A stretch of 25,125 nucleotides of DNA from a virus (Duplodnaviria > Caudoviricetes). Below are positions 1 through 22,557 of this stretch, one piece after another (position 1 is the first letter of the stretch; the number at the start of each line of letters is the position of its first letter). The stretch lies in IMG/VR virus record IMGVR_UViG_3300016649_000566, positions 1 to 25,125 of that record. One strand, given 5' to 3'. The notes beneath the pieces are model-generated. The model saw nothing but the letters and a program-made list of their open reading frames with translations, searched no databases and was not told where the DNA came from. A program made the position numbers and the translations under genes.

Positions 1-900
1 TCACACGCCGCGAGGATAGAAGTTGACCAAGAGCCGGTAATCAGGAAAAAGCGCGGCATAAAACTCATCCGTTAGTACGAGCTTTGCAATCACCTCTGTC
101 GCATCCGTGTAACCAGCTTTTTTAAGGGCAGGCATTATTTCGTCGGTTATTTCAACTAGCCGACGCTCCAAGCATTCAAGACGATCATGCTCGACGTCCA
201 TTTGGATAACTGAGAATAAGTTGTGGCCCGACGCAACCGTGCCGCCTCCTATCGGGCCATATGTGGTCTCATCCTTGGTAAGAAAAAAGGTATTTGTGTG
301 GACTTTCCTCAGCGCCGCTCGCTCCTCATCGGTGAGCGTTGACCCCTTTACGCCATGCATCACCCAACGAGCAACTGACTCGGGCCAGTTGCGATGAACG
401 GTTTCCACGATGCCGCCGTTAGTCCAGGACGAATGATCGTAAACATCTATCGCATAAAAATATTCGTCAGTGATCCTAGCGAAAAGCAGAGGGCCCGCTC
501 TTTCAACGAAGCCGTTTTCGATCCGAGTTCCAAGATGTAGGTGATACACCCCCCAGTCGTTCAACATCAGGTCTGTTTTTTTCGTTTTTTCGATGAGCTT
601 GCTCAAGTGTGGGATTAGATCTAGCCCATCTTTCACTTTTTGCTGAATTAGCTCCCAGCCCGCTTGATGTTCAGCGGGGCAATGAAAGGTATCCGATATT
701 AGTAGCGTCCTAGGCCTGGAGGATATGCGCCTTTGCGCTGCGTTGAAGTAATGAACGGGGATGTCTGTTGTGAGTCCTTTCGTCTCCATACCCCAATCAT
801 TGCTCATGATTTCTATGAGTGTGTCGTGCCAGTCTGCTTTGAAGTCCATGATAAATTTCATCGAGGCGCCCTCTGGTTTGTGTAATTCGGCTTCAATCAC
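1..900 (-). CDS. Hypothetical protein (299 aa from GTG 900, or 286 aa from ATG 861); accessory cargo
   Basis: Long ORF with a globular-looking sequence containing DLMLNDWGVYHLHLG. GTG 900 overlaps the stop of 897..1265 (GTGA); ATG 861 has an upstream GAGG. Confidence 0.8.
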   Translation of the reverse strand: MIEAELHKPEGASMKFIMDFKADWHDTLIEIMSNDWGMETKGLTTDIPVHYFNAAQRRISSRPRTLLISDTFHCPAEHQAGWELIQQKVKDGLDLIPHLSKLIEKTKKTDLMLNDWGVYHLHLGTRIENGFVERAGPLLFARITDEYFYAIDVYDHSSWTNGGIVETVHRNWPESVARWVMHGVKGSTLTDEERAALRKVHTNTFFLTKDETTYGPIGGGTVASGHNLFSVIQMDVEHDRLECLERRLVEITDEIMPALKKAGYTDATEVIAKLVLTDEFYAALFPDYRLLVNFYPRGV

Positions 901-1265
901 GAACGTTTTTTCCCTCTCACGAGGTCGAGCACTCTCTGGAATTCTTCTTTCGATTTCGCATGAGGATCTGGCGCTCCTGCAGTGTTTGATTTACTGGAGG
1001 TGACCTGTGGCCTCTTCAGCGCCGCATGCGGCTTAGACGGCAATGCATTTTGGGATGGCGCGCGCTTATCAATCGAGTGAGCAGCAATGTATGCGTCTGC
1101 CCATGCGTCCAGCTCTAGTCGGTCAAACCCTACGCCCTGTTTGCCGATGGGGAACTCGCGGACGTGTGGCCTCACGGTTTCATTGAACACGGCTCGACAC
1201 ATGCCCAGATATTTCGGAGCCTCATGGGCTCGGAGGATTCGAGGTAGTAGTGACTGCATAACCAT
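897..1265 (-). CDS. Putative excisionase/RDF-like winged-HTH protein (122 aa)
   Basis: PRILRAHEAPKYLGMCRAVFNETVRP...FDRLELDAW follows the Xis/AlpA pattern (A..YLG.S...F, then F...EL..W). It resembles small proteins found next to Pseudomonas prophage integrases. AAGGAG RBS precedes ATG 1265. Confidence 0.7.
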   Translation of the reverse strand: MVMQSLLPRILRAHEAPKYLGMCRAVFNETVRPHVREFPIGKQGVGFDRLELDAWADAYIAAHSIDKRAPSQNALPSKPHAALKRPQVTSSKSNTAGAPDPHAKSKEEFQRVLDLVRGKKRS

Positions 1266-1423
1266 TGTCGCTCCTTGTTCATTTGACTGAGGGGGATCGC
1301 ATTGGATGGCGTCAGTTACAGCGCTGCCAGCTTGGCAGACCGACCGATAAGCACTTGTCGCCGATTCCTTTATTACGACTGCGCTTGCGAAGGGCCAGGA
1401 GTAGAGCAGGAGGCATGAGGGGC

Positions 1424-1482
1424 CGGAAAAATATCCGACCCACCTCGGAAAAATATCCGATCAGGGTCGGAAAACTTTCCGG
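1424..1482. repeat. Three quasi-palindromic CGGA-N6-TCCG boxes at exact 22-bp period
   Basis: CGGAAAAATATCCGA at 1424 and 1446, CGGAAAACTTTCCGG at 1468; a degenerate fourth copy lies near 1489-1503. Intergenic. Confidence 0.85.
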
Positions 1483-1507
1483 TCTGGATCGAAAGTAATC
1501 CGTAAGG

Positions 1508-2014
1508 TCATACCAGTTTGTGAATGATCTTGCCCGTGCCTTGAGTTGCCTGTTTCCGGCGAGCCGGTTTCTTACCTGGGCTCCTTGCAAGCTCGACAAA
1601 CGGCGGCCAATGTCCCTCAAGGAAGGCCTCATAACGCTTCATGCTGTACATCACTCGACCATCCACCTTTCTCCAGATATCCCCCGGGATTGATCCATTA
1701 GAGCGCCTCCCTTCTAGGGCGCGTTGTGTGACACCTAAAAGCTCGGCCATAAGGCTTTCCGTGACCTTGTCCCAGTTGTCCGTTATCTCGACGAGGCTTG
1801 GCATAGGCGTGATCGGTAGTTCGGGGTCAGGTGTAGCCTGGTCAAGTTTGTTGAGTAGTGTTTGCCGAGCAACCTTGGGCATGCCATCGCCACCGAGGAT
1901 GAACGGAATTCCATTTGCTCGCAGCCATCGGGCCTGGATAGACGGACGAGCATTCCCTGTCAGTTCGACAATGTCCTGAGCGTTAATGAACATCGACTCG
2001 GAGGGGATATCCAT
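1508..2014 (-). CDS. Two-domain excisionase-like protein: DUF4224-like N-terminus fused to a second Xis-like HTH (168 aa)
   Basis: ATG 2014 has an AAGGA RBS. N-terminus MFINAQDIVELTGNARPSIQARWLRANGIPF...DGMPKVAR fits DUF4224. C-terminus DKVTESLMAELLGVTQRALEGRR...IWRKVDGRVMYSMKRYEAFL is a winged-HTH type seen beside prophage integrases. Confidence 0.7.
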   Translation of the reverse strand: MDIPSESMFINAQDIVELTGNARPSIQARWLRANGIPFILGGDGMPKVARQTLLNKLDQATPDPELPITPMPSLVEITDNWDKVTESLMAELLGVTQRALEGRRSNGSIPGDIWRKVDGRVMYSMKRYEAFLEGHWPPFVELARSPGKKPARRKQATQGTGKIIHKLV

Positions 2015-2145
2015 ATTTTGATTCCTTAAGCGCCAGACGACCGCTGGTGGTTGCCTATGGCGGGGTTTGCGGCAATGAAATTGACTATTTCTGCTACTTT
2101 CCCGCGAGCAAATCAACCAGCCGGAAACGACTTGGAGAACCCTGC

Positions 2146-2340
2146 ATGTTCCTGACCCATGAGGAAGTGGCCGAACTCACAGGCTACGTTAAATCGAGCG
2201 CCCAAATTAAGTGGCTTAAGGCCGGGAGATATGGATTTGCCATTGATGGATACGGAAAACCAAAGGTACTGCGACAGGTAGTGATCGCCCGGCTCGGCGG
2301 TGCTGAGGAGAAGAGGCAACCGGAACTACGGTTTAAATAG
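2146..2340 (+). CDS. DUF4224-family protein, putative excisionase (64 aa)
   Basis: MFLTHEEVAELTGY...AQIKWLK...DGYGKPKVLR...PELR is the DUF4224 pattern. GGAG RBS at 2134-2137 precedes ATG 2146. Confidence 0.8.
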   Translation: MFLTHEEVAELTGYVKSSAQIKWLKAGRYGFAIDGYGKPKVLRQVVIARLGGAEEKRQPELRFK

Positions 2341-2385
2341 GGATAACGCCACAGTCAGGCAAGCAATATTGAGCGCGCTGACTCG

Positions 2386-2428
2386 GCATCGCATGCAAGG
2401 ACGGCGCATGTCGGCCAGCATGCGATGC
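2386..2428. repeat. Perfect 11-bp inverted repeat with GCATG motifs
   Basis: GCATCGCATGC (2386-2396) and GCATGCGATGC (2418-2428); the 21-nt spacer contains another CGCATG. Confidence 0.75.
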
Positions 2429-2474
2429 GACAAAGTGGCATCTAGTTGAGGCCGATCAAAGCGAGGAAATACCC

Positions 2475-2687
2475 GTGGAGCAAAAACGCACCGCCCTGGT
2501 GGGCAACGCCGAAGTAATCAAGATGCTAGGCATGCAAAGCGTGTCCGGCCTCAATAAGCTGCGGGTTCGCGACAAGACCTTCCCTGTACCGATCAAAACC
2601 AGCGATGCGCGGGGTGCTCGATGCCGCTTCGATCCGGTCGAGGTCGAACAGTGGATCGCCAACAAGAAGGCTGCTCGCAACCAGTAA
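2475..2687 (+). CDS. AlpA-family DNA-binding protein / RDF (70 aa)
   Basis: EVIKMLGMQSVSGLNKLRVRDKTFPVPIK...RFDPVEVEQWI carries the AlpA FP.P and E...WI signature. GTG start with GAGGA RBS. Confidence 0.8.
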   Translation: MEQKRTALVGNAEVIKMLGMQSVSGLNKLRVRDKTFPVPIKTSDARGARCRFDPVEVEQWIANKKAARNQ

Positions 2688-2771: not shown

Positions 2772-3035
2772 CTATTTTGCGTGATACGCCCACCAATCGT
2801 GGATCGAGACCATAGGTACTGCCGTTCTGTCGCGCCCGGTCACGTTAGTCCAGAACGTTAGCAGTCGGTCGCCTTCGGAGTGTCGAGGTTCAGCTCCCTG
2901 CTTCCAGCCGATCAACGTGGTTCGGGCCACCCCGATTGACTCTGCAATCGCCTGCATCGGAAGGCCTGCGCGTGATATTTCGTTGATCACTTGAAACCAA
3001 TCAATTGAGCGCGCCGGCGGCGCCCGACGGCTCAT
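2772..3035 (-). CDS. Small XRE/Cro-like HTH protein of phage type (87 aa)
   Basis: MQAIAESIGVARTTLIGWKQGAEP is a classical HTH; ATG at 3035. Confidence 0.75.
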   Translation of the reverse strand: MSRRAPPARSIDWFQVINEISRAGLPMQAIAESIGVARTTLIGWKQGAEPRHSEGDRLLTFWTNVTGRDRTAVPMVSIHDWWAYHAK

Positions 3036-3334
3036 CAATCACCCACAAACGCGCGCGCGCGCGAGGCAGACCGTTTGAGGTGCGATAAAAACGTCTTCAA
3101 ACGCTCACCTTTCATAAAAATATCTACTGGCTACATTGGCCGCAGGGCCAGGGCTGACTGCCACTAAGATGCTTGCCGAGAGCTTACGTTTCCTCATCTG
3201 CCGAGGTGAGGGTAAACGCGCAGGAGATGTAGGCATTTGGTTGACAAAAAAAGAAATCTGCAATCTTTTCAGGTTGACAGATCCTGTTATCTGCCAGATT
3301 ATTCTCGGAAACCAGACCCAGCAGGCTTTCCTCC

Positions 3335-3925
3335 ATGGCTATAAAGAAACCCTCACATTTCAGCCCGGACTTATCTAATGAGCGTCTCGAGGTCATCGCT
3401 CGGGCTTTGCTGGACATTCGTCACACGACGATCCGTGAACTAAATTCAAAATATGATTCGAATTATAGCCGTGAAGGGACTGCGTTTGAGCGATCTCGCA
3501 ACCTGTTGATAGATATGTGTCTAGAGAAAGGGCATGACTGGTTACGCTTGGCCAGTTCCGCGATGGATGTGACCTTTCGTATTGGTAGCATTCCGTGCAG
3601 GTTTTTCAGGGATGATCCCGAGTCGCCCAAGAAAAGAGGGTTCTTCAAACGAAATCTGGTCGATAACCTCTTCGCGACTGATGAGGGCGAGCCAGTCATG
3701 TGGCGATTCGTTGTAGAACGTGCGGAGACTGACGAGGATGAGGATCGTGTTCATTTGATAGGTTTTAACGCCTTTCAAGAGAAAGTATCGCAGTGGACTT
3801 TTGGTGATTCGATTCGTTCTCTTCACTCTGTGGATAAAGAAGTTCCTGTGGCTAAAAGCTTGCGGCCTGCTGCTGTCGGCTTGCTTGATGATGAAGCTGC
3901 TAGTGATGAAGCGGTTAGTGAGTAA
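3335..3925 (+). CDS. Hypothetical protein, putative toxin partner of the HTH-metallopeptidase (RmrT-like), 196 aa
   Basis: ORF ends 3 nt before the HTH-ImmA/IrrE gene; both lie in a visibly more AT-rich block. The toxin role is inferred from gene context only. Confidence 0.6.
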   Translation: MAIKKPSHFSPDLSNERLEVIARALLDIRHTTIRELNSKYDSNYSREGTAFERSRNLLIDMCLEKGHDWLRLASSAMDVTFRIGSIPCRFFRDDPESPKKRGFFKRNLVDNLFATDEGEPVMWRFVVERAETDEDEDRVHLIGFNAFQEKVSQWTFGDSIRSLHSVDKEVPVAKSLRPAAVGLLDDEAASDEAVSE

Positions 3926-3928
3926 TTG

Positions 3929-5029
3929 ATGAGCGCAATTTTTGATGGAGCCTCCCTTCGGCTAGCTAGAATATTCAATGCCATGGCTCTGGAAGAGGTT
4001 GCCGAGCAAGTAGGGAAAACTCGGCAATACCTACATAAGTTAGAAACAAATCAGAGTTCCCCCACTGATGCGTTGTCGCAAGACCTAGCTGATGCGTTGA
4101 ACGTCGAAGTTGGCTTTTTTTCGTCCAGGCAGCACAGATTGCATGAAGATCAGTTTCATTTTAGAAAACTGATGAGCACCACGAAAACGATAAAGCAGGT
4201 TGCAATTGCTCGCGGTGAGGTAACAAACCTCTTTATCAAGGCGTTAGAAAAAGAGCTTCGACTACCTACGGTAAATATTCCCAGCATCCCAGAAATTCAC
4301 AGCACCGACTGTATCGAAAAAGCTGCTGAAGCATGTAGACAACAATGGGATCTTGGGCTCGGGCCGATTGAGAATATGACGCGTCTGGCCGAAAATCTGG
4401 GTGCAATCGTGATGTCTTTCGATGGTATCTCTCAAGAGATTGATGCTTTATCGGTAGCGGTTGAGCGGCCTTTTATTGTGCGGAACACTGCCAAGGAAAG
4501 TAATAGCAGACAACGTTTTGATCTAGCTCATGAGTTGGGCCACCTAGTTATGCACGAAGGCGTTGTTACAGGTGATAGGTTAACCGAGAATCAAGCGAAC
4601 AGATTCGCTAGCTCATTTCTTGTTCCTCGTAGCATGATGATAAAGCTGTTCCCTAGACCTACAGGTACGCGACTGGATTGGAAGGGGATAAGGGAGTTTA
4701 AACAAACTTGGAAGGTGAGTAAGGCCGCTATTTTGTATCGCGCTAGACAGCTCGAGTTGATCTCAGATGCACAGTATAGAACTGGCGTGATTACTCTGAA
4801 GAAGCATGAAGGAACACATGAGAAAGATGATTATCTAATCCCTTCAGAGCCGCCTGAAATAATTGGCGCCTCCCTCAATCTTCTAGCTAAACGTAAAGGG
4901 ATACAGCTTTCTGATATTGCTACCATACTTCAGGTCAAGCCTGAGTTTTTAAAAGAGCTTCTCGGCACTGGATATGAAAATCACTATGCGGTTACTCCTA
5001 TCGGGGGGCATCTCCGCTTGGTGAAATAG
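3929..5029 (+). CDS. XRE-HTH + ImmA/IrrE (peptidase M78/DUF955) zinc metallopeptidase, RmrA-like antitoxin (366 aa)
   Basis: N-terminal HTH LRLARIFNAMALEEVAEQVGKTRQYLHKLE; RQRFDLAHELGHLVMH (HExxH) followed by ENQANRFA. Confidence 0.9.
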   Translation: MSAIFDGASLRLARIFNAMALEEVAEQVGKTRQYLHKLETNQSSPTDALSQDLADALNVEVGFFSSRQHRLHEDQFHFRKLMSTTKTIKQVAIARGEVTNLFIKALEKELRLPTVNIPSIPEIHSTDCIEKAAEACRQQWDLGLGPIENMTRLAENLGAIVMSFDGISQEIDALSVAVERPFIVRNTAKESNSRQRFDLAHELGHLVMHEGVVTGDRLTENQANRFASSFLVPRSMMIKLFPRPTGTRLDWKGIREFKQTWKVSKAAILYRARQLELISDAQYRTGVITLKKHEGTHEKDDYLIPSEPPEIIGASLNLLAKRKGIQLSDIATILQVKPEFLKELLGTGYENHYAVTPIGGHLRLVK

Positions 5030-5079: not shown

Positions 5080-6048
5080 TTATCGAAATGCCGGGTCTGC
5101 GCTATCCAAGGTACTTAGGGAGCTGGCAGGTATGTTTCTACAGATCCGCTGTAGTTTTGCTTCTAGGATATCAGCCCGACCCCTCTCCCTGTCTGCTATC
5201 AGACCCGCTTGCTGCAACGCATAATCAACCTCTGCTAACTGATTAATCCGTTTTTCTAACGCAACCTCACGACCATCGAGTTCACGCTGAAGGAGTTCGA
5301 GTTGTGTCTTTTGTCGCATGAGTGCAGTCCGCCGATTCTGTAGGGCCGCCTCAGCGGCACTTTGGAGCTTGACCTGTGTTACCGAAGCCTTAGCCCGAGC
5401 CAGTAACGCCGTATAACCCTGCGTATGTATGCCCATAGCGGCGGCCGCTAGGTCTGATCTGGCAATACTTGGTTCGACTGCAACGAGGGATTGGTAATAC
5501 CGGGAAACCTTCTGGTGAGGCGCTTTGGCCCCCTCAATACCACGAGACAGTCCGAAAGGCTTCCCACACCAATGATGGAAGTCGGTTTGCATCTTACGCA
5601 GCTTGGCGGGGCCTCCGAGGAAGTCACGGGCCGACAAGCGCCCGTCACGTGTTAGAGGTGTGACGTAAGCAACAAGATGCGGCGTTCTCTCGTCCAGGTG
5701 CACCTCGGCGCACACAATGTTTGCTGACCCATGACGCGCCTTGAGCCATGCCAAGGCTCGATCAAAGTAACCGCCGGTGTCAGGCATCGCCCCGCCATGT
5801 CTAGCAAACGCCTCAGGGCTTGCTGTAATCAAATATTCGATGCAGATCACCGCTCCCTTCCGTCGCTTTTGCGGAAGCCTGGCCAAGACTGCGCGACCCA
5901 GCTCGACGGCGCTTGTTGCACCAGCCATATGCATGCTGGGGGTGCTATCGGAGTTCGGCGTTGGCATCTCTCGGTATGTGTGCCGCCCCGATCCCAGTAC
6001 CCCTGTGATCGCTTTGAGCTTTTTTGTTCTTAGTATTGCGTACGGCAT
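5080..6048 (-). CDS. mobV: MOBV (Mob_Pre) family relaxase (322 aa)
   Basis: Starts MPYAILRTKKLK...HTYREMPTPN (motif I His), EYLITASPE (motif II), VHLDERTPHLVAY (motif III HxDExxPH), then LSARDFLG...MQTDF and a coiled-coil C-terminus. ATG 6048 is preferred over the track start at 6096. Confidence 0.92.
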   Translation of the reverse strand: MPYAILRTKKLKAITGVLGSGRHTYREMPTPNSDSTPSMHMAGATSAVELGRAVLARLPQKRRKGAVICIEYLITASPEAFARHGGAMPDTGGYFDRALAWLKARHGSANIVCAEVHLDERTPHLVAYVTPLTRDGRLSARDFLGGPAKLRKMQTDFHHWCGKPFGLSRGIEGAKAPHQKVSRYYQSLVAVEPSIARSDLAAAAMGIHTQGYTALLARAKASVTQVKLQSAAEAALQNRRTALMRQKTQLELLQRELDGREVALEKRINQLAEVDYALQQAGLIADRERGRADILEAKLQRICRNIPASSLSTLDSADPAFR

Positions 6049-6115
6049 ACCGGCCCCGTGCTGACGGTCTTTATCTTCAGCCTGCGGGTGGAGCAAAGAT
6101 CAGCGCAAGTCACCC

Positions 6116-6158
6116 CAAGCCTTCAGCTTGTGTACTCACTACACAAAGCACGCTTTGT
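6116..6158 (-). other. Putative MOBV oriT (pBBR1/pMV158-like)
   Basis: Minus strand reads ACAAAGC-GT-GCTTTGT (IR, 6143-6158), then G, TAGTGAGTA (6133-6141), CA, and a second hairpin CAAGC-TGAAG-GCTTG (6116-6130), ~70 bp upstream of mobV. This is the IR + TAGTGAGTA layout I recall for the pBBR1 oriT. Confidence 0.75.
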
Positions 6159-6319
6159 TGTTCGCCACGTGCCGTGGAAGGTCATTGGAGCAGGTGCGCG
6201 CGTCTGTGGCCGGCTATCAGGCTTCCCGGTCTTCTGATGCCAATGCGGAGCATCCTTGTCAGCGGCTCGGTGTTGGCACCGATTGCCATCATTCAGACAT
6301 TCGATATATGGAGAAAACG

Positions 6320-6580
6320 ATGAGCAACGTATCCGATGAGCAACCAATCGAATTCATCCGCTTGCGGGAAGTGAAAAGACTCACTGGCCTCAGTACAGCC
6401 ACCATTTACCGCATGGCAGTCAGCGAGACTTTCCCGAAACAGGTGAAACTCGGAACAAAGGCGGTGGCGTGGATCAAATCCGAGGTGCTGGATTGGAGCC
6501 GTGAGCAAGTCAAACGCTCCCGTGGGCATGATCTGCCTCCTGCTCCTAATGATCAGCAACCGATGAGCAACCAAGGCTAG
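6320..6580 (+). CDS. alpA: AlpA-family transcriptional regulator / RDF (86 aa)
   Basis: FIRLREVKRLTGLSTATIYRM...FPKQVKLGTKAVAWIKSEVLDW is canonical AlpA. GGAG RBS precedes ATG 6320. Confidence 0.9.
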   Translation: MSNVSDEQPIEFIRLREVKRLTGLSTATIYRMAVSETFPKQVKLGTKAVAWIKSEVLDWSREQVKRSRGHDLPPAPNDQQPMSNQG

Positions 6581-7043: not shown

Positions 7044-10000
7044 CTATTTTTTCCCTGTGAGAAGTCCTTTCATGAACGCAGCAGCGTCCTCCGGCTCTTC
7101 ATCCCCAACCGTTATATCCCACAGGTAAGTGCCTTGCCTGGTGAGCGGTTTGACCGGGATGCCTAGCAGGTAGCCAGTTGCCGTTACAGCAGATTTGACC
7201 ACTTGCCCTGGGTCTTTGTCACCACTTGCTACGCCAGCGACGGCAGAGGTTAGCTGGCGGCCTGCATTGATCGCCTGCCATGCAGGTGACAACGACCCTG
7301 CGTGACCGCTCAGTGCGGAGCCGATAGTGTCCCGAATGACCGGAAAGCCAGAGACACCGAAACCCAGTGTGCTTTTCGCCATCCAGGCTGCGGTGTTCTC
7401 GTCCTCTTCTGGGCCCTTACCCGTCAGCAGATCGCCGATGACTCCCTGAAAGAACGCCAAAGCCAGCATTGAAGCTGCGGCACTGGCGACAGTTCTCGTC
7501 CCTTGGCGAGCCTCAAAGGCCAGGTCTCGGTTCTGGTTGTAGTAGGCGCTGAACGGTGTGTAGAACATCGTCAGCAAGCGCATTGCGGCGCCCTGGTCTT
7601 TGCGTTGGATTGCCGCGATGTCCATGGCTCCGGTGCCGCCTTGGGATTGCCGTACAGCCTTGTCACCATCCAACACTGCGGCCGTGCTTTCCTTGCCTGC
7701 TGCAACACCTTCACGGTAAGCCGCGAGCCAAATCGCGCCCGAGATGCCCCGATCTAGGTACCCCAGCAGATTGAACGAGAACCGTACCAGGTCGGCTTTC
7801 TTGCGGAAGAACGCATTGCGGCCGATGAGGGCGCTCATGTTGGATTGCAGTCGGCCGTCTTCCATGTCCCAGCGTAGGCGCATCGCAGGAGAAGCCTCGG
7901 TGATCATCTGGTAGGTATCAACCGGCGACCGCACGCCTTCAAGCAGGGCCGTAGCGAGTTCACGAGGCTTCACGTACAGCAGGCCAGGTATAAGTCCAGC
8001 TGCCTGGGCCAGTAGGGTTGTTGTCGAAAGCCCTAGTCCTACGATGGACGTGTTTGTCCGTGCCGTGTCGAGGAACTGGTTGAAGTTGCCAGTCTCCGGA
8101 GGGTTTCGGTCATTAGCGATGGCCCTCAACCAGGGCAGGAATGCATCAGCTCCGCGCGGGCCCAGCTTATTGATGAGCACAGCCCGAACGTAGGGATCCT
8201 GCGTAAGGCGGTGGGCGTCCTGCAACGCTTCCCGGTGGGTCAGGTCGTGGACATGCTGGGCTAGGCGCTGGGGGATGGCGCTGAGGTCGAGCAGTAGTGG
8301 CCCTGACACGCTCTCGTTACGCTGGTTGGTGAAACCGTTACCCGGTAGCGCTCCTTCAAACCCTTCACCGAACAGCTCGCCGCCGACTGCCGCTGGCGGT
8401 GCGCCTGCACGCTTGCGGTCATAGATGATTGGGAAGTAGCCACCGCGGTATTCACCGAAGGCGGTTGTGATTGGTTTCGGCTCAATGCGGGGAGGCTCCA
8501 CACCGGAGAGGCGTTTGTACATTGCTGCGATATCGGGCCACAGGCCGTCGAACGAGTCCCATACAGACTGCACCAGATCCCAATCCTGTTTGTCGAGGCG
8601 TCCCAGCATGTCAGCCAGTGATGCTTCATCGACCTTGTTCCCTTTCAACAACTTGTTGCGGTTTGACTCGTTGCCGGTGTTGAGCGCGTGCATGATTAGC
8701 TCGCGGCGGTTGAATGATTTTCCAAGGCTGGGGATGTGGAACCGATCTGCCAGGCGTTCGGCGTTCATGTCCGCAAAGCGCTCAACTATCGAGCGGATGC
8801 CGGCATTGAACAACTGACGCTCATTGGCTTGGGCCTCTGCGAGTGGGCTCCAGATCAACTGGTGCCAGGGGCCGCTGGTGTCCCTGCCGTCTAAGCGGTT
8901 GATCACGTTCTCCATCCGCGTCAATGAGGCATCCAGCCCCTGCAGAAGACCTACTGCCTTGTCACCGATGGTTTCGCTGCTTTCGGATACAGCCACTTGT
9001 CGTGCGCGTACGGGCACATTTGTGTCTAACGCAGCTATGAGATCAGTCCTTGCCTGTTCGTAATCGCGCTTGTCCTTGCGGTTCAGCAGCTTGTTTTTCA
9101 GCCTGGCCATATGCTCGATGTTTGCCACTGCGTCACGTAGGCCGCCAAGCTCCTCGAATGTCAGTTCCCGATAGTTGACGCGGGCGCTCTGTTCAATCAG
9201 GTGTTGCGGTACCGCGACGATGTTGCCGGCGGCCTCTTGCTCCCTGACGAACTGGGCGAGGCTACGGCGACGATCAACCTGCGGGCCGCTGACCTTGCGG
9301 AACTCGTACTGATCCAGCAGTCCCTCGATTTGCTCCAGGTAGTTGGCCCCGGCTTTGCCTATGCGCTCCCGGGTTGCTGGCTTCTCAAAGCGGCGCATGA
9401 AGGTATAAATCCGGTCTTCTTCCTTTCGGGCAGCTGTCGCTTCCCGGAACAAGTAATGATTCAGCAACTCCCGTTGTTTGGCCTCGGCGGCCTCTTGCCA
9501 GCGGTTTTTCGTGGCGAAGTTGAAGGCGTCCCGGTTGGCCTTGCGCTCGGCATTGAGATACAGGTGAGGCTGGATATCTCGCACAACCTTGTCCGCGATC
9601 ACCTGTTTGGCAACTGAACGGATAGCCTCCAGAGGAGGTATGGCATCGTAGGCATCGTTGCGCAGAGCCCGAGAGTCGGCATCCTGAGCCCTCTGCACCT
9701 TGTCGACCTGGCGGCGAAGACGATCAATAGCGCGCAGCTCTTCGCGGAGAACCCTGGCACGATCATCGTTGTGCACTGCCTCAATGGCACGGTCTGCCAA
9801 AGAGCCGTCGTTAAGCATGTCGCCATACTCGGCGCGCATCCTGGCGTCTGTTTCCGCTTGGATGAGTTCCTTGCGTGCACGGGCACCTACCATGGCCTGC
9901 ACCAGTTCATCACCTGATGTGTACCCGAACTGTTCGGCAACCAGGTCGGGATGAATCCCATCATCGCCTGTCATGCCGCGCAGGCGTGTTACGACCGTCT

Positions 10001-13000
10001 TGCCGTAGCGTTCCAGCAGCGGTTCGCGCAGCAGTTTTACCGGCTCGCCAATCGTCCCATCGGTCTGCACCCCTTTTCGCAAGTAGTCTTGAACGCGATA
10101 CACCGGCTGTGAGTCGACGTCTTTGGTGACGTCAGCCAGCATCTTCGCGCGCGCATCCTTCCACCACTTTTCCTGCTCTCGGGTCAGCTCGCGTAGCGAC
10201 TCGGCTGTCAGTCGTTCCTCTGCAGCCTGACCAGCCTTGTAGGCGGCTGAGTGATAAGCCTCGAACTCGGCCGGTGACATGCCGGCGGCCTGGGCATCGC
10301 TGAACAAGGTGCGGAAGGGGGCTTGAGCAACAGAAATTTCATCATCGGTGGCCAACAGTCGATCAAACACCCGACGCACGTCGTCATTGAGTTGGACGTT
10401 GAGCCGACTGGCATCGCGATAGATCTGGGTCAGCCACGCCTTGAAGCGTGAAAAAGCCGACTGCAATGCTGCGCTGGGGGCCTTCCCTTCGCGCAAGTAC
10501 GCTTCAAAGCCGCGCGCAAACTGTTCGTGCTGATCGACTTTGATGTCTGTGCGCTCATTGACGCCGAACCAATCCAGAATTGTCTGGTAGTCCTGTTTCA
10601 CCTGATCCGGAACGTCCGTGCGCGATGCGAGATCACCCATCACTTCAAGGTAAAAATGCCCGGTTTCATGCAGGAAGGTAGAAAGGTTCGCCTTGTCGGT
10701 CAGTTTGATTTCGAACTTGCGGTCGGCGCCGAACTGGATAAAGCCGCGTGTACCGTCCTCTGATTGATCGAAGCGGATGGCGTCGCTCCCGAGCAATGCT
10801 TTTCGTACTGCGGCGTTGTCCAAGACGTTCAGATCAAGGCCAGATTGATCAAGTGCTCGTTGCAGGTCATCTAGCGAGCCGCGTGCATTGAGAAGCTCTT
10901 GGTTGAGATTGGCGGGCGCTGATTGGCGTTGGCCGCGCAGTTCTTTGTCCAGTGAGGCCAAGAGCATTTCCGGCGTTGCGGTTGGCACATTTCCCAAGTA
11001 TCCGGCCTCTGCAGCTTGAGTGGCCATATCGTCCAGACTGCGCCCACCCTTCCTGGCAATTCGGTTGTTACCTCGACGGCCCACATCAGCATCACGGGCC
11101 GCCAGCTCGCCACCATCGTCGCGTATGCCGCCGCGCTCACGAATGAAGTCGATTAGCGAGGCGCCGTAGATCTTCGCGTCGTCGGGAACATCGGCGGCGC
11201 GCAGGCGATCAATCAGCAGGTCAAACTGATCAGATCCGCCAGGCTTGCGCAGCACCTCAGGAATGTCCTGGCCGATGCGGAGCCGATACTGGTTGAACAG
11301 ATCGTAAGGGTCGATACCTGAGCGCTCTCCCAGAGAGCGAAAGGCGGACTGATAAAGCGATGCCTCTCTGTCTGCTGTCTGGGCTTCGCGACCAATACCA
11401 AGCAACTGACCGCGAACATCTTCATACACTCGGCGATCCGATGCGGCGACATGGTCTTGCTCAACACGATCACGAAGGCGCTCAAGCTCCTCAGGGGCGC
11501 GTTGCTGGAACTCAGCAAGTTCTCGTAGCGTCATCGCGTCGGGAGTTGCGCGCATATCCTGCTCGAGGCCGCGGTGGTGCCCGTCCTTGGCAATGACCGA
11601 CGCCCACTTCTCCAAAGGGATTGAGATGTCTGCACCAAGGGCCAGGGCTTCTCCAAGGGCATCGGGGTTGCCTGTCGCCGCTTTGGCGAACTGCTCAGGA
11701 TCGAGGTTGTTCTCCTGGAAGTAGCGTTGGAACTGCTCGGCGGGTACCAGGATGTTTTCTACATTGCCGCCAGCCTGCTCTTTCAGCCTGGCCACGAGTG
11801 CTTCGGCTCGCTGTGGTGAGCGTTTGAACATCTTGGAGTTCTGAGCCATGTCACCCAGTTGTTGGACGGCAGCCAGATCTTTCTCGATTTGCCAATATCG
11901 TCTGCCAGAGCTGGCACTTGCGATAGCGACATCAACCGGCGACGTTGCCAAACCCAAGAAGGCGTTCAAGAACATTTCTCCCCCAGTTGCCTGTTCGCCG
12001 ACGGCAGCAGCACCTGCGACCGTGCCACCAACAGCGCCTGCAGCTTGGGCTACACCTTCAACTGCGACGTTGCCCAGCTTTCCTGCTATGCCGCGGCCGG
12101 CAAACGGAATCGGCACCATGCCGCCTAATGCGTTGATCGCGGCTTCGGCCGCAGTGCGCTTGAAGCTGTAGGCGTATGCCTGGTCTAAGTCGCCGGTTTT
12201 CTTGAGCCCTTCGGCCAGGTTCTCTCCTGCACCGCCGGCGATGCTGGTACCGAGGTTAACCCCTCCCACTACGATTGCCTTCTCAGCCGCACGTTGCGCA
12301 AAGGTGCTGGCAAGACGACTGACAGCGAAGTTCTTCACCGGTTGCGCCGCAATCCCGCCTATAACCCCGCCTGCCAAAAGGCTAGGTAGCGATTCAGTCA
12401 GTGCGCTGCCGATCAATCCAGGGTTGCGTAATGCGTACAGGGCGGTATCACTCGCCGCGCCACCCACACCAGCACCGCCGTCGCGGGCTTTGTCGAATAT
12501 CTGTCCTGCGAAAGCAATACGTTGGTCGCGTGGTAGAGCCAGGTATCCCTGGGCGGTGTTGGTGATGTTGCTTTCCGTGCGGCCCGTATAGTTCGGCTCT
12601 TCTCCCTTGTTGCGATCCAAAGCGCTCTGCGGTGCCAGTGCGTTCACGAAAAAACCACCAACCGAAGACAGCGCCCTGTCCAGCATGTTGGCGCCGGCCT
12701 CACCGATTATTCCCAGTTGACCAAAACCCTTGGTCAGTGCATCGCTCTTACTCGTTGAGTGCTGTTGACCGGACTCTTTGACGAAGTTATCAAAGGCACC
12801 TTCGACGTTGGACAGCCCGTCGATATCGTCGTGGGCCACGCTGGCGTTGTCCGGGTCAGTCAGGAACTGGTTGGTGGCCGGCGCTCGCTCAATCAGGGCG
12901 TCGTAGTCCACGGATGCCAGCTTGGCTTGTCGCTCAACCTGCTTGCGGTTGCGAACAACCATGTCAGGAGCGAGCCCTGTCAGTTCGGCCAGGCGTTGAA

Positions 13001-13157
13001 TGCTGGCTTGCTCATCCGGGTTGTTGTCAGCAACGTAGCTCAGAGCCGTGCGGGGGTTGGGCTTGCTCTGCTGGCGCTGGATGGCAACGTCGTACTTGTT
13101 TGCCTCTACGCCCTGAGGTTCTTCTTTGCCGGCGAGGATGTTGTCGTACTGGCTCAT
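7044..13157 (-). CDS. Large internal virion / DNA-ejection protein (T7 gp16-analogous, polyvalent type) with zincin-like HExxH motif (2037 aa)
   Basis: Mostly helical, with Gly/Ala-rich hydrophobic segments near both ends and STFLHETGHFYLE...HEQFARGFEAY. It is the last and largest of three size-graded genes, as in podovirus ejection operons. ATGA overlap with the upstream gene. Confidence 0.8.
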   Translation of the reverse strand: MSQYDNILAGKEEPQGVEANKYDVAIQRQQSKPNPRTALSYVADNNPDEQASIQRLAELTGLAPDMVVRNRKQVERQAKLASVDYDALIERAPATNQFLTDPDNASVAHDDIDGLSNVEGAFDNFVKESGQQHSTSKSDALTKGFGQLGIIGEAGANMLDRALSSVGGFFVNALAPQSALDRNKGEEPNYTGRTESNITNTAQGYLALPRDQRIAFAGQIFDKARDGGAGVGGAASDTALYALRNPGLIGSALTESLPSLLAGGVIGGIAAQPVKNFAVSRLASTFAQRAAEKAIVVGGVNLGTSIAGGAGENLAEGLKKTGDLDQAYAYSFKRTAAEAAINALGGMVPIPFAGRGIAGKLGNVAVEGVAQAAGAVGGTVAGAAAVGEQATGGEMFLNAFLGLATSPVDVAIASASSGRRYWQIEKDLAAVQQLGDMAQNSKMFKRSPQRAEALVARLKEQAGGNVENILVPAEQFQRYFQENNLDPEQFAKAATGNPDALGEALALGADISIPLEKWASVIAKDGHHRGLEQDMRATPDAMTLRELAEFQQRAPEELERLRDRVEQDHVAASDRRVYEDVRGQLLGIGREAQTADREASLYQSAFRSLGERSGIDPYDLFNQYRLRIGQDIPEVLRKPGGSDQFDLLIDRLRAADVPDDAKIYGASLIDFIRERGGIRDDGGELAARDADVGRRGNNRIARKGGRSLDDMATQAAEAGYLGNVPTATPEMLLASLDKELRGQRQSAPANLNQELLNARGSLDDLQRALDQSGLDLNVLDNAAVRKALLGSDAIRFDQSEDGTRGFIQFGADRKFEIKLTDKANLSTFLHETGHFYLEVMGDLASRTDVPDQVKQDYQTILDWFGVNERTDIKVDQHEQFARGFEAYLREGKAPSAALQSAFSRFKAWLTQIYRDASRLNVQLNDDVRRVFDRLLATDDEISVAQAPFRTLFSDAQAAGMSPAEFEAYHSAAYKAGQAAEERLTAESLRELTREQEKWWKDARAKMLADVTKDVDSQPVYRVQDYLRKGVQTDGTIGEPVKLLREPLLERYGKTVVTRLRGMTGDDGIHPDLVAEQFGYTSGDELVQAMVGARARKELIQAETDARMRAEYGDMLNDGSLADRAIEAVHNDDRARVLREELRAIDRLRRQVDKVQRAQDADSRALRNDAYDAIPPLEAIRSVAKQVIADKVVRDIQPHLYLNAERKANRDAFNFATKNRWQEAAEAKQRELLNHYLFREATAARKEEDRIYTFMRRFEKPATRERIGKAGANYLEQIEGLLDQYEFRKVSGPQVDRRRSLAQFVREQEAAGNIVAVPQHLIEQSARVNYRELTFEELGGLRDAVANIEHMARLKNKLLNRKDKRDYEQARTDLIAALDTNVPVRARQVAVSESSETIGDKAVGLLQGLDASLTRMENVINRLDGRDTSGPWHQLIWSPLAEAQANERQLFNAGIRSIVERFADMNAERLADRFHIPSLGKSFNRRELIMHALNTGNESNRNKLLKGNKVDEASLADMLGRLDKQDWDLVQSVWDSFDGLWPDIAAMYKRLSGVEPPRIEPKPITTAFGEYRGGYFPIIYDRKRAGAPPAAVGGELFGEGFEGALPGNGFTNQRNESVSGPLLLDLSAIPQRLAQHVHDLTHREALQDAHRLTQDPYVRAVLINKLGPRGADAFLPWLRAIANDRNPPETGNFNQFLDTARTNTSIVGLGLSTTTLLAQAAGLIPGLLYVKPRELATALLEGVRSPVDTYQMITEASPAMRLRWDMEDGRLQSNMSALIGRNAFFRKKADLVRFSFNLLGYLDRGISGAIWLAAYREGVAAGKESTAAVLDGDKAVRQSQGGTGAMDIAAIQRKDQGAAMRLLTMFYTPFSAYYNQNRDLAFEARQGTRTVASAAASMLALAFFQGVIGDLLTGKGPEEDENTAAWMAKSTLGFGVSGFPVIRDTIGSALSGHAGSLSPAWQAINAGRQLTSAVAGVASGDKDPGQVVKSAVTATGYLLGIPVKPLTRQGTYLWDITVGDEEPEDAAAFMKGLLTGKK

Positions 13158-15286
13158 TGGTTGGCCTCATTGAACAGGTTGAGGATCTCGGCATCACTCG
13201 CAGTGCGGCCGTGGCGCTTAAGCGCCGCGGTAATCTGCTCGTGCTCATCGGCGGGAATCTGCTTGATGTCCGTGACCCGAACGTTGTCCCCAGGCTTCCG
13301 CTCAAACGCGCGTTGCTTGTTGGTGAAGAAACCGAACAGTCCTGACCCTTCAACCGTTCCTTCGATGAAGGCGTGATCCACGATCTGTTGCACCTGCTCG
13401 TGTGTGGCCTTCTTGTTCTGTTGCGCCTCTAGCCCCCGGATCTGGTCATCCACATAGCGACGTGCCGTTGCCACTTGCTTGGCTACCGCTGATCCCGGTT
13501 TAGGGCTGGAAGGCATGCCTGCGTTGCGCAAAGCGTCGTTGAACAGAGCTGTGCTCGTCGAGATCGATGCTGTTGCTGCTGGCCCGCCGGTCAGCCGCTT
13601 AATCTGCAGGTCGGTCAGGCGGGTGAAGTCCTCATTGCTCAGCTTGTCACGCATGTCGAGCAGGTTGACTTCGTTCCCTTGGGCGATGAGATCCCTGGCA
13701 TTGGTATACACCTCAGGATCGGTTTGCTGATTCTGCTTGTACGCCATCAATTGCTTGCGGTCTTTTGCAGGTAGCTTGGCCCAAAGGTCGGGATCCAAGT
13801 CTTGCCATTTGTTGCCCCTGAGCATGAAGTCCCAAGCCTGCCCTTGGTTCTGAATGTGCTCCTGCTTTTGCTGATCTTGCTGCCAACTGAATCGGTCGCG
13901 TGCATCAGCGATGGCGATGCGTTTCTGATCAGGGGTTAGATCGCTGCGAGCATCAATGCCCTTGGCGATTTGGCCGAATGTCGGTTCGGCCTCCTGCTGG
14001 ACGCTGCTGAGAACTTTCTGGGTATAGTCCTTCGTTTCTTTGAAGGGGATACCCTTGATGAAGTCTGCTTCGCTGATTTCGCCCGTCCTAGGGTCACCCA
14101 ATTTCAGCTTGCTTTCATTCTTGCCCGTGGTGTTGGTGCCGTTGATCCAATCGTTAACCATTCCAGGGCCCGCGTTATAGGCGGCGACGGCCAGCGCGTC
14201 CGAACCATCGAACGTTTGGCGCAGCTTCCCGTAGTACGCCTCTCCAAGTGAGCGGTTGTAGTCTGCATCGGTCTTGAATCGCTTTTCGTCCCATGGCAAG
14301 CCAGCAGCCTGAGCAGCCTCAGGGCCAGTGCTAGGCATCACCTGGGCGATACCTACCGCTCCACGATTGGAGGTAAGTGGCGCTCCGGATGCGTCGACCT
14401 GGCGACCGTCGCTCTCCGCCTGAAGCATTGCCGCGAACACCGATCCGCTCCCGCTTTTGGCTTGCTCGACCGCCTGTGCTCCAACGCTGACGCCGATGCT
14501 TCGATCCAGCAGCGGGTTGAGGGTTTTAATCAGGCTTTCTCGGTTCTTCAGGGTGAGCGATGAATATGGGCCGTCGTCCCAGTTAGACAGATCACGCTGG
14601 ATTTGCTGCAGTTGTTCCGGATTGTTCCCGGCGCTGTGGATCCGCGCCAGTGCGTTAGCGGAATAGGCCGACTGTTCAAAGGTGCGCACCTCTTTATCCC
14701 AGCCATCGATGCCATAAGCGCTGCGGCCAACGGTCTGAACACCGTCCGCCCGCGCTCGATTGAGGATCTGGCCCAGGTCAGCATCTGGCCTGGCGGCTGC
14801 GTTCTCCAACAGATCAAACCGAGACCGGAGCTCACTTTTAGCCAAACCTGTGCGGGCCTCCAGCACCGATCCTTGGATCTGTTGAAGCTTGTTTGCCTGC
14901 ATCTTGCGTACAGCGAGATTCAAATGCTCTTGGTCAGATGCATCCAGGCCTGCGACTTTCACCGGCTCCAGCTTGCTGATGAATTGCTGATAGCTTGATT
15001 CGCCTTGGTCAGGTTGGACTTCCAGGGTTTTCAGCTTGCCGCTGAGCTCGTTTACCCCGGTGTCTAGTTGGCTCTCATAGTCCAACAGCGCGTTGCTTAC
15101 CTTGACCTTAGAGAGCTCCTGGTCTTCTTTGTTTTTCTGGTCAAGGAAGGAAAGCGCTGCGTTCTGAACTGTGCCGGCTAACTGTTGCGCGCCACGATTC
15201 AGATTATTTGGGTCTGGTGTAATAACGCGATTTTGGGGCGCCTCTGGCAATACACGTACGCCCGGGCCAAGTGGTATCTGTGCCAT
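13154..15286 (-). CDS. Internal virion / ejection protein with lytic transglycosylase (SLT) domain (710 aa)
   Basis: SLT motifs AMLQAESDG (catalytic Glu), GAVGIAQVMPST, AVAAYNAGPG and ETKDYTQKV sit in a helical Q-rich scaffold. ATG 15286 overlaps the upstream stop (TGATG) and has a GAGGA RBS. Confidence 0.88.
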   Translation of the reverse strand: MAQIPLGPGVRVLPEAPQNRVITPDPNNLNRGAQQLAGTVQNAALSFLDQKNKEDQELSKVKVSNALLDYESQLDTGVNELSGKLKTLEVQPDQGESSYQQFISKLEPVKVAGLDASDQEHLNLAVRKMQANKLQQIQGSVLEARTGLAKSELRSRFDLLENAAARPDADLGQILNRARADGVQTVGRSAYGIDGWDKEVRTFEQSAYSANALARIHSAGNNPEQLQQIQRDLSNWDDGPYSSLTLKNRESLIKTLNPLLDRSIGVSVGAQAVEQAKSGSGSVFAAMLQAESDGRQVDASGAPLTSNRGAVGIAQVMPSTGPEAAQAAGLPWDEKRFKTDADYNRSLGEAYYGKLRQTFDGSDALAVAAYNAGPGMVNDWINGTNTTGKNESKLKLGDPRTGEISEADFIKGIPFKETKDYTQKVLSSVQQEAEPTFGQIAKGIDARSDLTPDQKRIAIADARDRFSWQQDQQKQEHIQNQGQAWDFMLRGNKWQDLDPDLWAKLPAKDRKQLMAYKQNQQTDPEVYTNARDLIAQGNEVNLLDMRDKLSNEDFTRLTDLQIKRLTGGPAATASISTSTALFNDALRNAGMPSSPKPGSAVAKQVATARRYVDDQIRGLEAQQNKKATHEQVQQIVDHAFIEGTVEGSGLFGFFTNKQRAFERKPGDNVRVTDIKQIPADEHEQITAALKRHGRTASDAEILNLFNEANQ

Positions 15287-15825
15287 CAGGAATTCCTCAC
15301 CCAGGCTGGATTGGTATTCAGTTCTTGCGTTTGGCCCTGCATGTCTCGACCTGCAGCGGATGCTTTCCACCCGCTAGCAATCCGAGCTCCACTGGAAAGC
15401 ACGGTGCCAATGGATTGGGCGTTCGCGTTGGATCGAGCCTGGCTTCCTGCCAGCTTGTAGTTGCTGGTATCGACGGAGCCGCGGGCCTTTTGGTTCTGGC
15501 CATTGAAGATGGTCAACACCGCGTCTTCCTCGGCATTGCCGATGATTTCTTCGTTGATGTTGACCGCGGTGCCTTCACCAACTTCAACACCAGACCCTGC
15601 AAGGGCCGTGTTGGCCTCACTGGCCTGGTTGCGGGCAATCCGTCGGATACGGTCGGCCTGCACCATTGAGGCACTGGCGGCCGCGTTGGCGTCGTTTTGT
15701 GCCTGCTCGGATTGAGCATCAGCGTTCAAGCTGGCCTGCTTACCGGCCTGCTGCGTTGAGTAGACCGAATAGGCCGTACCGGCAACGGCAGTGGCTAAAG
15801 CGACAGCGGTGGTGTATCCAGACAT
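15286..15825 (-). CDS. Small internal virion / ejection protein, T7 gp14-like (179 aa)
   Basis: Hydrophobic Ala-rich N-terminus (TTAVALATAVAGTAYSVYS), A/Q/N-rich helix, ALAGSGVEVGEGT motif and a Gly/Ser-rich segment near the C-terminus; GGAG RBS. Confidence 0.72.
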   Translation of the reverse strand: MSGYTTAVALATAVAGTAYSVYSTQQAGKQASLNADAQSEQAQNDANAAASASMVQADRIRRIARNQASEANTALAGSGVEVGEGTAVNINEEIIGNAEEDAVLTIFNGQNQKARGSVDTSNYKLAGSQARSNANAQSIGTVLSSGARIASGWKASAAGRDMQGQTQELNTNPAWVRNS

Positions 15826-15827
15826 GG

Positions 15828-16286
15828 TTATTCTCCAGTGGTGATGGTCAGGTCGTTGCTTTGCTGGCGCGACATGAGTGCTGTGGGTTGATTGGTAAAT
15901 TCAGATTCGGCGTCTTCAACCGTTTTGGCCTGGGTGGCAAAGGTCATGGTCAGGTCGGTATCGGCATGTGCTACAAACACCTGCTTGCGGCCGGCCTGTC
16001 CCGGGACGATGTGGTATCCCTTCAGCTCAAGTGTTTCGCCACCGATGAAAACCGTGACGTGGCCCGAGACAATCAGCAGAGTGGGGATATTGATCAGGGC
16101 GCCAGTGATCATTACGCCGGCGGGAATGCGGATGGTTCGGGAGTAGAGTCCCGCGTGAAAGTGGTGCTGGGTCTGGATGGCCACTTGCTCCATACCAAGC
16201 AAATGCGACTCCAACCCTCGGACTTTCTCAACGTCTGCACTTGTCATAGCGGGGAGTGATGGAGCCGCGGAGGCGATGCTGTTCAT
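15828..16286 (-). CDS. Phage cupin-like beta-rich protein (152 aa)
   Basis: HHFHAGLYSRTIRIPAGVMITG...LIVSGHVTV...GRKQVFVAHADT is a cupin-type pattern I associate with phage virion gene regions. ATGA-coupled to the GNAT gene. Confidence 0.7.
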   Translation of the reverse strand: MNSIASAAPSLPAMTSADVEKVRGLESHLLGMEQVAIQTQHHFHAGLYSRTIRIPAGVMITGALINIPTLLIVSGHVTVFIGGETLELKGYHIVPGQAGRKQVFVAHADTDLTMTFATQAKTVEDAESEFTNQPTALMSRQQSNDLTITTGE

Positions 16287-16744
16287 GCGAGCACCTTCAG
16301 GAATACCTGGTTGGTTTCGCGGTATCCGGAGCGGGGCAAAACCATCGCCAGCCTGCTGCCAATGGGCGCGCTGATCATCAGGGCAGATGCGCCCAGTGCT
16401 AGGGCGCGGGCCTCGGCTGCACGCAACAGCTTGATACCTGCCCCGCCCTTGCGTGCATGCGGCTCAACGAAGAATGACTCCATCGCGCAGATGCGACGGC
16501 CCGCGTAGTGCGGCAACCCATACACCAGCAGTGAGGCAAGCCCGACCAAGTCAGGGCCGAACGCACCGAGAATGTGGAGTGCGCCGCTCGCCTCCATTGC
16601 CCGATACGTTGAAAAGCAGGCATCAACCTCGCCGAACTCAGGGATGCTCGATTCATCGCCATAGGCAGCCAGTAACTCAGGCAATGCGCCGGCCTGCTCC
16701 AGCTCGGCCATCGTGCAGGTTCGAATAATCGTTTCAATGCCCAT
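16283..16744 (-). CDS. GNAT-family acetyltransferase (153 aa)
   Basis: ESFFVEPHARKGGAGIKLLRAAEARA is acetyl-CoA-binding motif A. Its position ahead of ejection genes matches podovirus morphogenesis clusters. Confidence 0.85.
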   Translation of the reverse strand: MGIETIIRTCTMAELEQAGALPELLAAYGDESSIPEFGEVDACFSTYRAMEASGALHILGAFGPDLVGLASLLVYGLPHYAGRRICAMESFFVEPHARKGGAGIKLLRAAEARALALGASALMISAPIGSRLAMVLPRSGYRETNQVFLKVLA

Positions 16745-17057: not shown

Positions 17058-17410
17058 GGCCGGTTCTCCAGAACAGATGTGTGTTCCCACCTGTTCACAC
17101 TTCTTTGTTTTAGTGGGAACGCTCGCAGCCCACGGCCGCTCTGGCTGTTCCCACCGTTCCCACTGTTCCCACCACTTTTTCCCTTCGCCCGATGCAGTAG
17201 CTCGAAAGCGTGGTGCGCGAATCGAGTCTTCTCAGCACGATCACCACAATGTGTTTCTGTGATTCTGAAAACGGTGGGAACAGTGGGAACCGGGGGAACG
17301 AGCCCGGCCAGTAAGGGCTCCAGGCGTTCACACTTGTTCCCACTATGAGAATTGGTGGGAACAGAGCTGCTGCACGAATTTGGCTGGATGGGGGTGCGAA
17401 GACTGGTCAT
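17054..17410 (-). CDS. Questionable 118-aa ORF spanning the iteron array
   Basis: ATGA overlaps at both ends (17407-17410 and 17054-17057), but VPPVPTVPTV and GGNSGNGGNS are simply translations of the iterons. Confidence 0.35.
   Translation of the reverse strand: MTSLRTPIQPNSCSSSVPTNSHSGNKCERLEPLLAGLVPPVPTVPTVFRITETHCGDRAEKTRFAHHAFELLHRAKGKSGGNSGNGGNSQSGRGLRAFPLKQRSVNRWEHTSVLENRP
17083..17362. repeat. Iteron array, putative replication origin (12 copies of GTTCCCAC and variants in both orientations)
   Basis: Forward GTTCCCAC at 17083, 17147, 17156, 17165, 17336; reverse GTGGGAAC at 17113, 17274, 17283, 17355; variants GTTCACAC at 17093 and 17326, GGGGGAAC at 17292. It lies directly downstream of the helicase, where SaPI/PICI origins sit. 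Confidence 0.85.
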
Positions 17411-20582: not shown

Positions 20583-20585
20583 GGG

Positions 20586-22424: not shown

Positions 22425-22485
22425 CGTCTGCGCCTCCTAGGGCGGTTTGGGTAATCGACGATGGCAATGCTGGAGAGGGTGGTGG

Positions 22486-22538: not shown

Positions 22539-22557
22539 GCTGTGTCTAAAGGCGACT

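Follow-up and report, generated by a model that had tools for sequence, protein, structure and literature searches.

Recombination directionality factors (RDFs) promote the excision of integrated elements and oppose their integration, as established for lambda Xis. The nearest precedents that we found for the locus described here are VefA, VefB and VefC of Vibrio cholerae islands, which act in trans on the excision of another element (PMC7721734), RdfS, RdfG and RdfM, which occur together in one mobile element, the tripartite Mesorhizobium integrative and conjugative element (ICE) (PMC5882170), and AlpA, which in trans excises PICMIs (phage-inducible chromosomal minimalist islands), some of which hold 2–3 alpA copies (PMC10803314); in each of these cases, the element that encodes the RDF also encodes its cognate integrase. 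Tha/Ith of Staphylococcus aureus phages illustrate that a gene labelled 'xis' can turn out to have a role in conflict (PMC11087260). Here we analysed a trimmed virus record of 25,125 bases cut at gene ends (Caudoviricetes; IMG/VR record IMGVR_UViG_3300016649_000566, positions 1 to 25,125; hereafter the window), which belongs to a satellite resembling phage-inducible chromosomal islands (PICIs) and holds four consecutive RDF-type genes, X1 to X4, with no integrase next to them. This array is real, selected and recurrent.

Like X1, the RDFs of tyrosine integrases (lambda Xis, TorI, AlpA, RdfS, GIsul2 Xis and Pukovnik Xis) are small MerR-type winged-helix proteins, and homologues of all four array families abut or overlap an integrase gene. 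Unlike these RDFs, the array pools four families without their integrases or attachment (att) sites, has two of them fused and lies in defence cargo; it differs from a canonical int–xis module in that the cognate integrase and att site are not adjacent and the integrase reading frame has been erased. The Vef proteins belong to islands with related integrases of their own rather than to a captured multi-family array, the tripartite-ICE RDFs, unlike the array, have their cognate integrase in the element and serve its own excision, and Ith, unlike the array genes, occurs singly, overlaps the gene of its toxin and lacks a tie to any one type of integrase. The carrier has the int–alpA–ash–primase–helicase core, tRNA-type att site and defence cargo common to PICI, PICMI and P4-like satellites, but differs from them in its 28-kb size, podophage ejection genes, MobV relaxase and multi-family orphan RDF array. 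Searches of open-access full texts, among which subscription papers are mostly absent, brought up neither an account of orphan RDF arrays nor one of a PICI carrying ejection proteins. The parts of the array are known protein families; what we did not find described is their arrangement as a selected array that draws integrase-less RDFs from several families, and its function is one that we infer.

A sequence-only reading of the window had listed four excisionase/RDF-like genes with five domains of about four families and no adjacent integrase, and open reading frames and profile hidden Markov model (HMM) searches bore this out: the four genes are intact and carry five RDF-type domains of four families (Table 1). 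Their layout is not that of one operon: the minus strand carries X2>X1 and the plus strand X3>X4, as two divergent pairs, and each gene has a ribosome site (AAGGA, GGAG or GAGGA) 6–8 nt upstream. HMM support is weakest for X4 (Pfam AlpA E value 0.046, below the cut-off). The head of X1, modelled with AlphaFold, is a MerR-type winged helix whose best structural matches, RppA (Z 6.6) and GIsul2 Xis (Z 6.4), are effectively tied, followed by Pukovnik Xis and RdfS (both Z 5.8) and TorI (Z 5.6); Z scores of 5.6–6.4 against the four solved RDFs are middling, with root mean square deviations of 2.3–5.0 over 53–61 residues. X1 thus has the Xis-type winged-helix fold that the sequence-only reading presupposed. 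For the C-terminal (9668) domain of X2, the model was poor (four-row alignment; predicted local distance difference test (pLDDT) 58), and Foldseek and VIA-align gave no clear match. A PDB sequence search with the X1 profile returned no match, no NCBIfam model matched X1–X4, and PADLOC at E 0.001 left X1–X4 unmatched while matching neighbouring genes. HMM matches, together with the fold in the case of X1, point to excisionase/RDF-type families with putative excision activity.

The normal context of each family was read from 251 genomes drawn from the genus of Pseudomonas sp. CHM02, with viral contigs examined separately. Counting phrog_13517 homologues within 500 bp of an integrase as linked, 40 of the 46 matches in the genomes were linked and 6 were not, as against 23 linked among 28 in viral contigs. 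All 48 single 9668 domains that were fetched (54 matches to the X2 alignment) adjoin an integrase of ~395 amino acids (aa), and DUF4224–9668 fusions other than X2 have no integrase at any of five loci. X3 shares 78% identity with the gene that, in mutS-integrating prophages, immediately precedes the 325-aa integrase; its viral relatives precede an integrase in 9/9 cases, and in 8/9 this is the 325-aa type found beside mutS. Among the best 30 DUF4224 matches (91 genomes had one), 25 were with and 2 without an integrase by seeds, and the remaining 3 gave no DUF4224 seed match, yet had an integrase. X4 is 86% identical to its homologue in the cultured podophage UFJF_PfDIW6, gene 23, which lies 320 bp upstream of that phage's integrase; only 1 of 13 X4 loci has an integrase nearby, because in X4-type prophage records the two genes lie at opposite ends (across att). 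The paper on UFJF_PfDIW6 reports no excisionase (PMC8951688), and gene 23 (L098 16272–16502) is likely the missing one. Helper-like podophages use X1-, X4- and DUF4224-type modules. The four domain families correspond to four integrase types, as expected from the earlier suggestion that their homologues would sit beside different prophage integrases.

In the window, no cognate integrase lies within 21 kb of the array, and the single integrase is, as first noted, more than 20 kb away. In the CHM02 locus (L097), 99.8% identical to window positions 1–1610, where its contig ends, the DNA from the array to the att core is free of integrase genes (the stretch left of the window was read in this relative only), and none is present in a closed-genome sister (G179) either; a remnant of tandem islands, with cognate integrases left of the window, was therefore rejected. 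Two further AlpA genes had been counted with the array: the copy at 6320 indeed lacks an integrase, but the copy at 22203 belongs to the satellite itself and stands 1.5 kb from the integrase.

Defining an array as at least two RDF-type domains without an integrase, and using eleven seed families with duplicates merged by hand, we found mixed orphan arrays at about 19 distinct Pseudomonas satellite or prophage loci, at least 10 of them in the 251 genomes. The arrays mix X1, DUF4224, 9668, X4, AlpA, phrog_6355, 539, 629 (Exc), 1300 (PrtN-like) and 12527 families, and a second fusion type (539–9668) occurs in L008. Besides satellites, temperate prophages carry arrays, at their far ends; one of them is the mutS-integrated G210, which has its own DUF4224–integrase pair at one end and the array at the other; tailocin cargo, suspected from mutS and prtR neighbours, was dropped on this layout. 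Variable arrays at this position, another expectation of the sequence-only reading, were found among eight sister satellites: four have arrays, all of different content (the window; X4 and X1 in L004/G179; X1, 6355 and 539 in L074/G122; 1300, AlpA and 6355 in L076), and four have none. An RDF-type neighbour within 1.2 kb accompanied 3/6 integrase-less but 0/40 linked X1 homologues in the genomes (Fisher p 0.0013) and 4/5 versus 0/23 in viral contigs (p 0.0002), a contrast favoured by the integrase filling one flank of linked copies. For phrog_6355, a neighbour was present at 6/8 orphans and 0/8 linked copies (p 0.007; five weak matches left out, one linked copy reassigned by eye). Clustering of orphan RDF-type genes exceeds chance. 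The small families phrog_12397 and phrog_6388 repeatedly accompany orphan arrays (L001 6763, 9277; L008 11596; L044 3585; L097 1836).

In integrase-linked X1 copies, the integrase gene starts inside X1 in another frame; this overlapping frame is present in 17/17 linked copies and 0/10 orphans, and the X1 frame itself is open in 10/10 orphans. The X1 linker, freed from the overlap, has diverged, while the C-terminal helix is kept (F109 invariant in 62 rows), and orphan 9668 domains retain a hydrophobic C-terminal motif. The ratio of non-synonymous to synonymous substitution rates (dN/dS; Nei–Gojobori) was 0.08–0.22 in the X1 head (measurable in 4 of 8 orphan pairs, the other 4 being saturated at silent sites) and 0.29–1.06 in the linker; 0.03–0.13 in the X2 domains and 0.47–0.76 in their linker (window versus three close fusions); 0.04 for X4 against a sister; and 0.07–0.10 for X3 against linked copies. 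The DUF4224–9668 fusion has 22 relatives among database proteins. On a tree of X1 heads (68 rows, 12 orphans), the orphan label changes 3 times versus 11.2 when shuffled (0/500), a signal inflated by near-copies, and a five-orphan group (92/75, not starred) joins satellite and prophage ends; as orphans cluster on this tree, they have been passed on as orphans. Orphan RDF-type genes are kept under purifying selection and are not debris, because their frames are open, the integrase frame is erased, dN/dS is low and the helix with predicted integrase docking is kept.

If repeated integration and deletion at a hotspot near att had left neutral debris, this would explain why arrays lie near element ends and vary in content, why broken copies occur in L044 (X4), L185 (X1) and L265, and why a replication-gene fragment stands among the array genes. 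Against this are the open frames from which the overlapping integrase frame has gone, dN/dS that is low in heads but not in linkers, the conservation of the fusion, orphan lineages common to different element types, and the use by the four cognate integrases of sites other than this tRNA-Leu-type att. On the evidence of frames and dN/dS, debris seems largely refuted, and we regard it as very unlikely. Over 96 bp, the fragment (1386–1484) matches an internal part of the F116/LKA5 replication gene with 77% identity; 29 bp are identical in L004, and its iteron-like repeat marks the border of a block with X2 and X3 (~930 bp, about 1474–2405) that is present in the window and absent from L004. This stretch may act as a decoy to the initiator of a phage, or may be a relic. 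In L004, a fragment of KilA-N, an antirepressor-type domain, occupies the slot between X1 and X4 (9431–9790). No shared repeat or cassette-capture site was found between array genes of different loci.

Structure prediction placed residues 88–122 of X1 on residues 1–170 of a cognate integrase (L005) with a model score of 0.69 (best control, 0.14); the score mark was reached by 116/157 solved pairs and 2/215 mismatched pairs. At least 96% of contacts recur between runs, the pLDDT of the partner is 62 or more, and the helix is predicted to lie on integrase residues 64–98, in the core-binding domain. X1 is thus predicted still to grip its cognate integrase family through the C-terminal helix, and the earlier proposal that the array acts in trans gains some support from this modelled contact and from selection.

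The same contact would suit jamming at induction, by which orphan or fused RDFs bind rival integrases or poison Xis filaments and trap co-resident prophages, so that the carrier wins the burst. Shortened, freed linkers, two independent head-to-tail fusions and coexistence with a cognate prophage in G179 agree with such a role, and prophage competition elements are reported to exist (PMC13492144). We nonetheless consider jamming unlikely: the DNA-binding heads, needless for a pure sequestering decoy, are as conserved as in linked copies. LexA binds the SOS-box motif CTGT-N8-ACAG, which is absent from the window; SOS control of the array was rejected on this ground, and there is no sign of induction-coupled control.

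A role outside recombination, such as repressing att-proximal promoters of rivals, switching off their defence genes or redirecting packaging in the manner of RppA, is favoured by the PICI protein RppA being the top, if tied, fold match of X1, by PrtN-like genes in some arrays, and by RDFs that double as regulators (PMC5882170, PMC3064807) and S. aureus phage genes labelled xis that proved to be defence inhibitors (PMC11087260). Each family is, however, tightly tied one-to-one to one integrase type, often overlapping it, and X1 is predicted to contact its integrase; we hold such a role to be improbable, much as for jamming.

Beyond family identity, integrase loss, selection and the recurrence of mixed arrays, which we regard as established, we see about an even chance that the array blocks incoming temperate phages from integrating, in trans. 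The array genes would be expressed in the resting host, and each domain would bind the attP arm and the integrase of one phage family, biasing recombination away from integration; a newcomer choosing lysogeny would stay an unintegrated, repressed circle and then be diluted out. The overlapped xis–int layout suggests that a lone RDF could not excise a repressed prophage with a silent integrase, whereas a newcomer trying to integrate would itself supply the integrase and attP that the array RDFs would meet. Repressed prophages that already reside in the host would escape, as their integrase is silent. The benefit to the carrier would be a smaller number of co-resident prophages able to lyse the host or to outcompete the carrier itself, and fusions (DUF4224–9668, 539–9668) would widen the target range per gene.

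G179 carries an orphan X1 alongside a full-size X1-type prophage with terminase, portal, capsid and baseplate genes, whose X1 head is 74% identical; such coexistence is as expected if repressed residents are spared. Blocking in trans also fits the position among defence genes and the presence of arrays in phages that need no helper. The sequence-only reading had proposed excision of residents or a block on lysogenisation by incoming temperate phages, which would either push helpers into lytic growth or evict competitors. Eviction is less likely than an integration block, because G179 keeps its cognate-family prophage, and for pushing helpers to lysis we found no evidence, complete temperate phages that need no helper having arrays as well. 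Helper-like podophages do use X4-, X1- and DUF4224-type modules, X4 shares 86% identity with its UFJF_PfDIW6 homologue, and AlpA in trans cures PICMI (PMC10803314); a satellite might therefore supply helper-family RDFs to speed helper excision, or cure competing residents. Yet complete temperate phages such as G210 have arrays, none of the helper-like phages examined showed a 9668-type module, Pseudomonas prophages at large commonly carry these families, an array is missing from 4 of 8 sisters and the cognate prophage persists in G179, so that we judge helper handling or eviction quite unlikely, slightly more so than jamming.

Several observations weigh against a selected array that blocks integration; its optional presence, its breaks and the failure to find a promoter count against every functional reading. 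The array is optional (sisters L055, L056, L071 and L073 have no RDF seed match beyond cro), insertion-like breaks lie inside X1 (984) and X2 (1611) in independent assemblies, and dN/dS of the 14-codon X1 C-terminal helix is noisy (0.12–0.77). The loose ends at these breaks resemble what we take to be IS3-family termini. The integrase domain in the modelled complex was truncated and came from a different phage, and the alignments were our own; an amphipathic helix may dock on an exposed groove, and the model cannot separate activation from jamming. X1-type prophages are not depleted in carriers (1/5 genomes with intact orphans versus ~15% of the rest). No promoter was found, the scan being uninformative (one sigma-70-like site in 850–3400; 1.7 by chance), and RNA-labelled contigs from three studies that cover X1 and X2, one of them also X3–X4, were found by this region, may be DNA and cannot show transcription.

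The carrier is a ~28-kb PICI-like satellite with a single integrase, as the left flank in L097 and the layout of G179, which matches the window, hold no further one. The likely source contig (28,107 bp) extends 2,725 bp to the left and 257 bp to the right of the window. Int, alpA and a primase/helicase core lie between att repeats, capsid and tail tube genes are absent, and no terminase or capsid gene was detected in the satellite. Left of the window, L097 has an IrrE-like gene, a 213-aa gene, then, at 2,630 bp from base 1, the att core, and after it host genes. In the circular sister L056, the 22-bp core, presumably a tRNA-Leu 3' end, lies 210 bp upstream of the integrase; L097, L071 and G179 have it at the far end. 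From the right, the order is PICI core, ejection genes, AlpA, MobV, RosmerTA, cro-like gene, the four array genes and PD-T4-7-like gene, which puts the array in the cargo end with PD-T4-7 on one side and RosmerTA on the other.

The LPD22 protein is 83% identical to its counterpart in UFJF_PfDIW6, which suggests that this podophage is a likely helper type; a second ejection-module identity is 60%. The ejection set, without capsid or tail tube, is retained in sisters (L004 98%, L055 94%, L056 88%), and a smaller satellite type (L074/G122) keeps only its internal virion protein. The MobV relaxase is conserved in sister satellites and suggests a second, conjugative route of spread. A homologue of the cro-like gene lies just upstream of holin–endolysin in helper-like podophages, and an upstream CG-repeat motif accompanies it (window 2772–3070); gene and motif are possibly a captured late-gene regulator or packaging signal. 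A search for genome loci by cro alignment found none. PD-T4-7, RosmerTA and, beyond the window, the IrrE-like and 213-aa pair (L097 2392–4014) form a defence hotspot into which sister satellites swap other cargo, for example a PDC-S33-like pair.

Table 1. Features of the window, with strand and supporting evidence.
Feature	Position	Strand	Evidence and remarks
PD-T4-7-like anti-phage gene	1..900	-	PADLOC 1.3e-31; directly downstream of X1; variable slot among sisters
X1, orphan RDF-type, phrog_13517	897..1265	-	HMM 2e-41; head (winged helix) 8-66; linker freed; C-terminal helix 102-117 conserved
Three iteron-like 20-mers	1421..1484	.	Resemble repeats inside F116/LKA5 replication gene
X2, DUF4224 + phrog_9668 fusion	1508..2014	-	DUF4224 6.6e-12, phrog_9668 excisionase 3e-19
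X3, orphan DUF4224 protein	2146..2340	+	DUF4224 3e-9, phrog_4764 excisionase 2e-20
X4, orphan AlpA-like	2475..2687	+	phrog_66 6e-6; Atlas first match 'AlpA family' 0.94
cro-like helix-turn-helix (HTH) gene	2772..3038	-	Kept in all sister satellites
RosmerTA toxin-antitoxin/defence pair	3335..5029	+	RmrT 3335-3925, RmrA 3926-5029; PADLOC 2e-69 and 3e-149
MobV relaxase	5080-6096	-	Within 5080..6580
Further AlpA without integrase	6320-6580	+	
Podophage ejection module	7044..16744	-	LPD22 2037-aa, lytic transglycosylase, internal virion protein, 152-aa gene, GNAT
PICI-like core	17407..25125	-	DUF927 helicase, primase, Ash, AlpA 22203-22424, single P4-type integrase 23920-25125

To our knowledge, known defences stop adsorption, injection or replication, or kill the cell. 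We tentatively propose, at somewhat less than even odds, that these loci are a modular anti-lysogeny weapon of Pseudomonas satellites and temperate phages, in which stolen excisionases, each the match of a single integrase family, form arrays that have been enlarged and fused in the way of anti-CRISPR arrays. The arrays already give guilt-by-association labels for the unannotated families phrog_13517 and phrog_6355. If the proposal is true, arrays would determine what phages can settle in the host. This would be a new class of conflict between elements, aimed at site-specific recombination itself, and would offer programmable, family-specific blockers of integration; by policing integration, the arrays would shape polylysogeny and the spread of prophage cargo.

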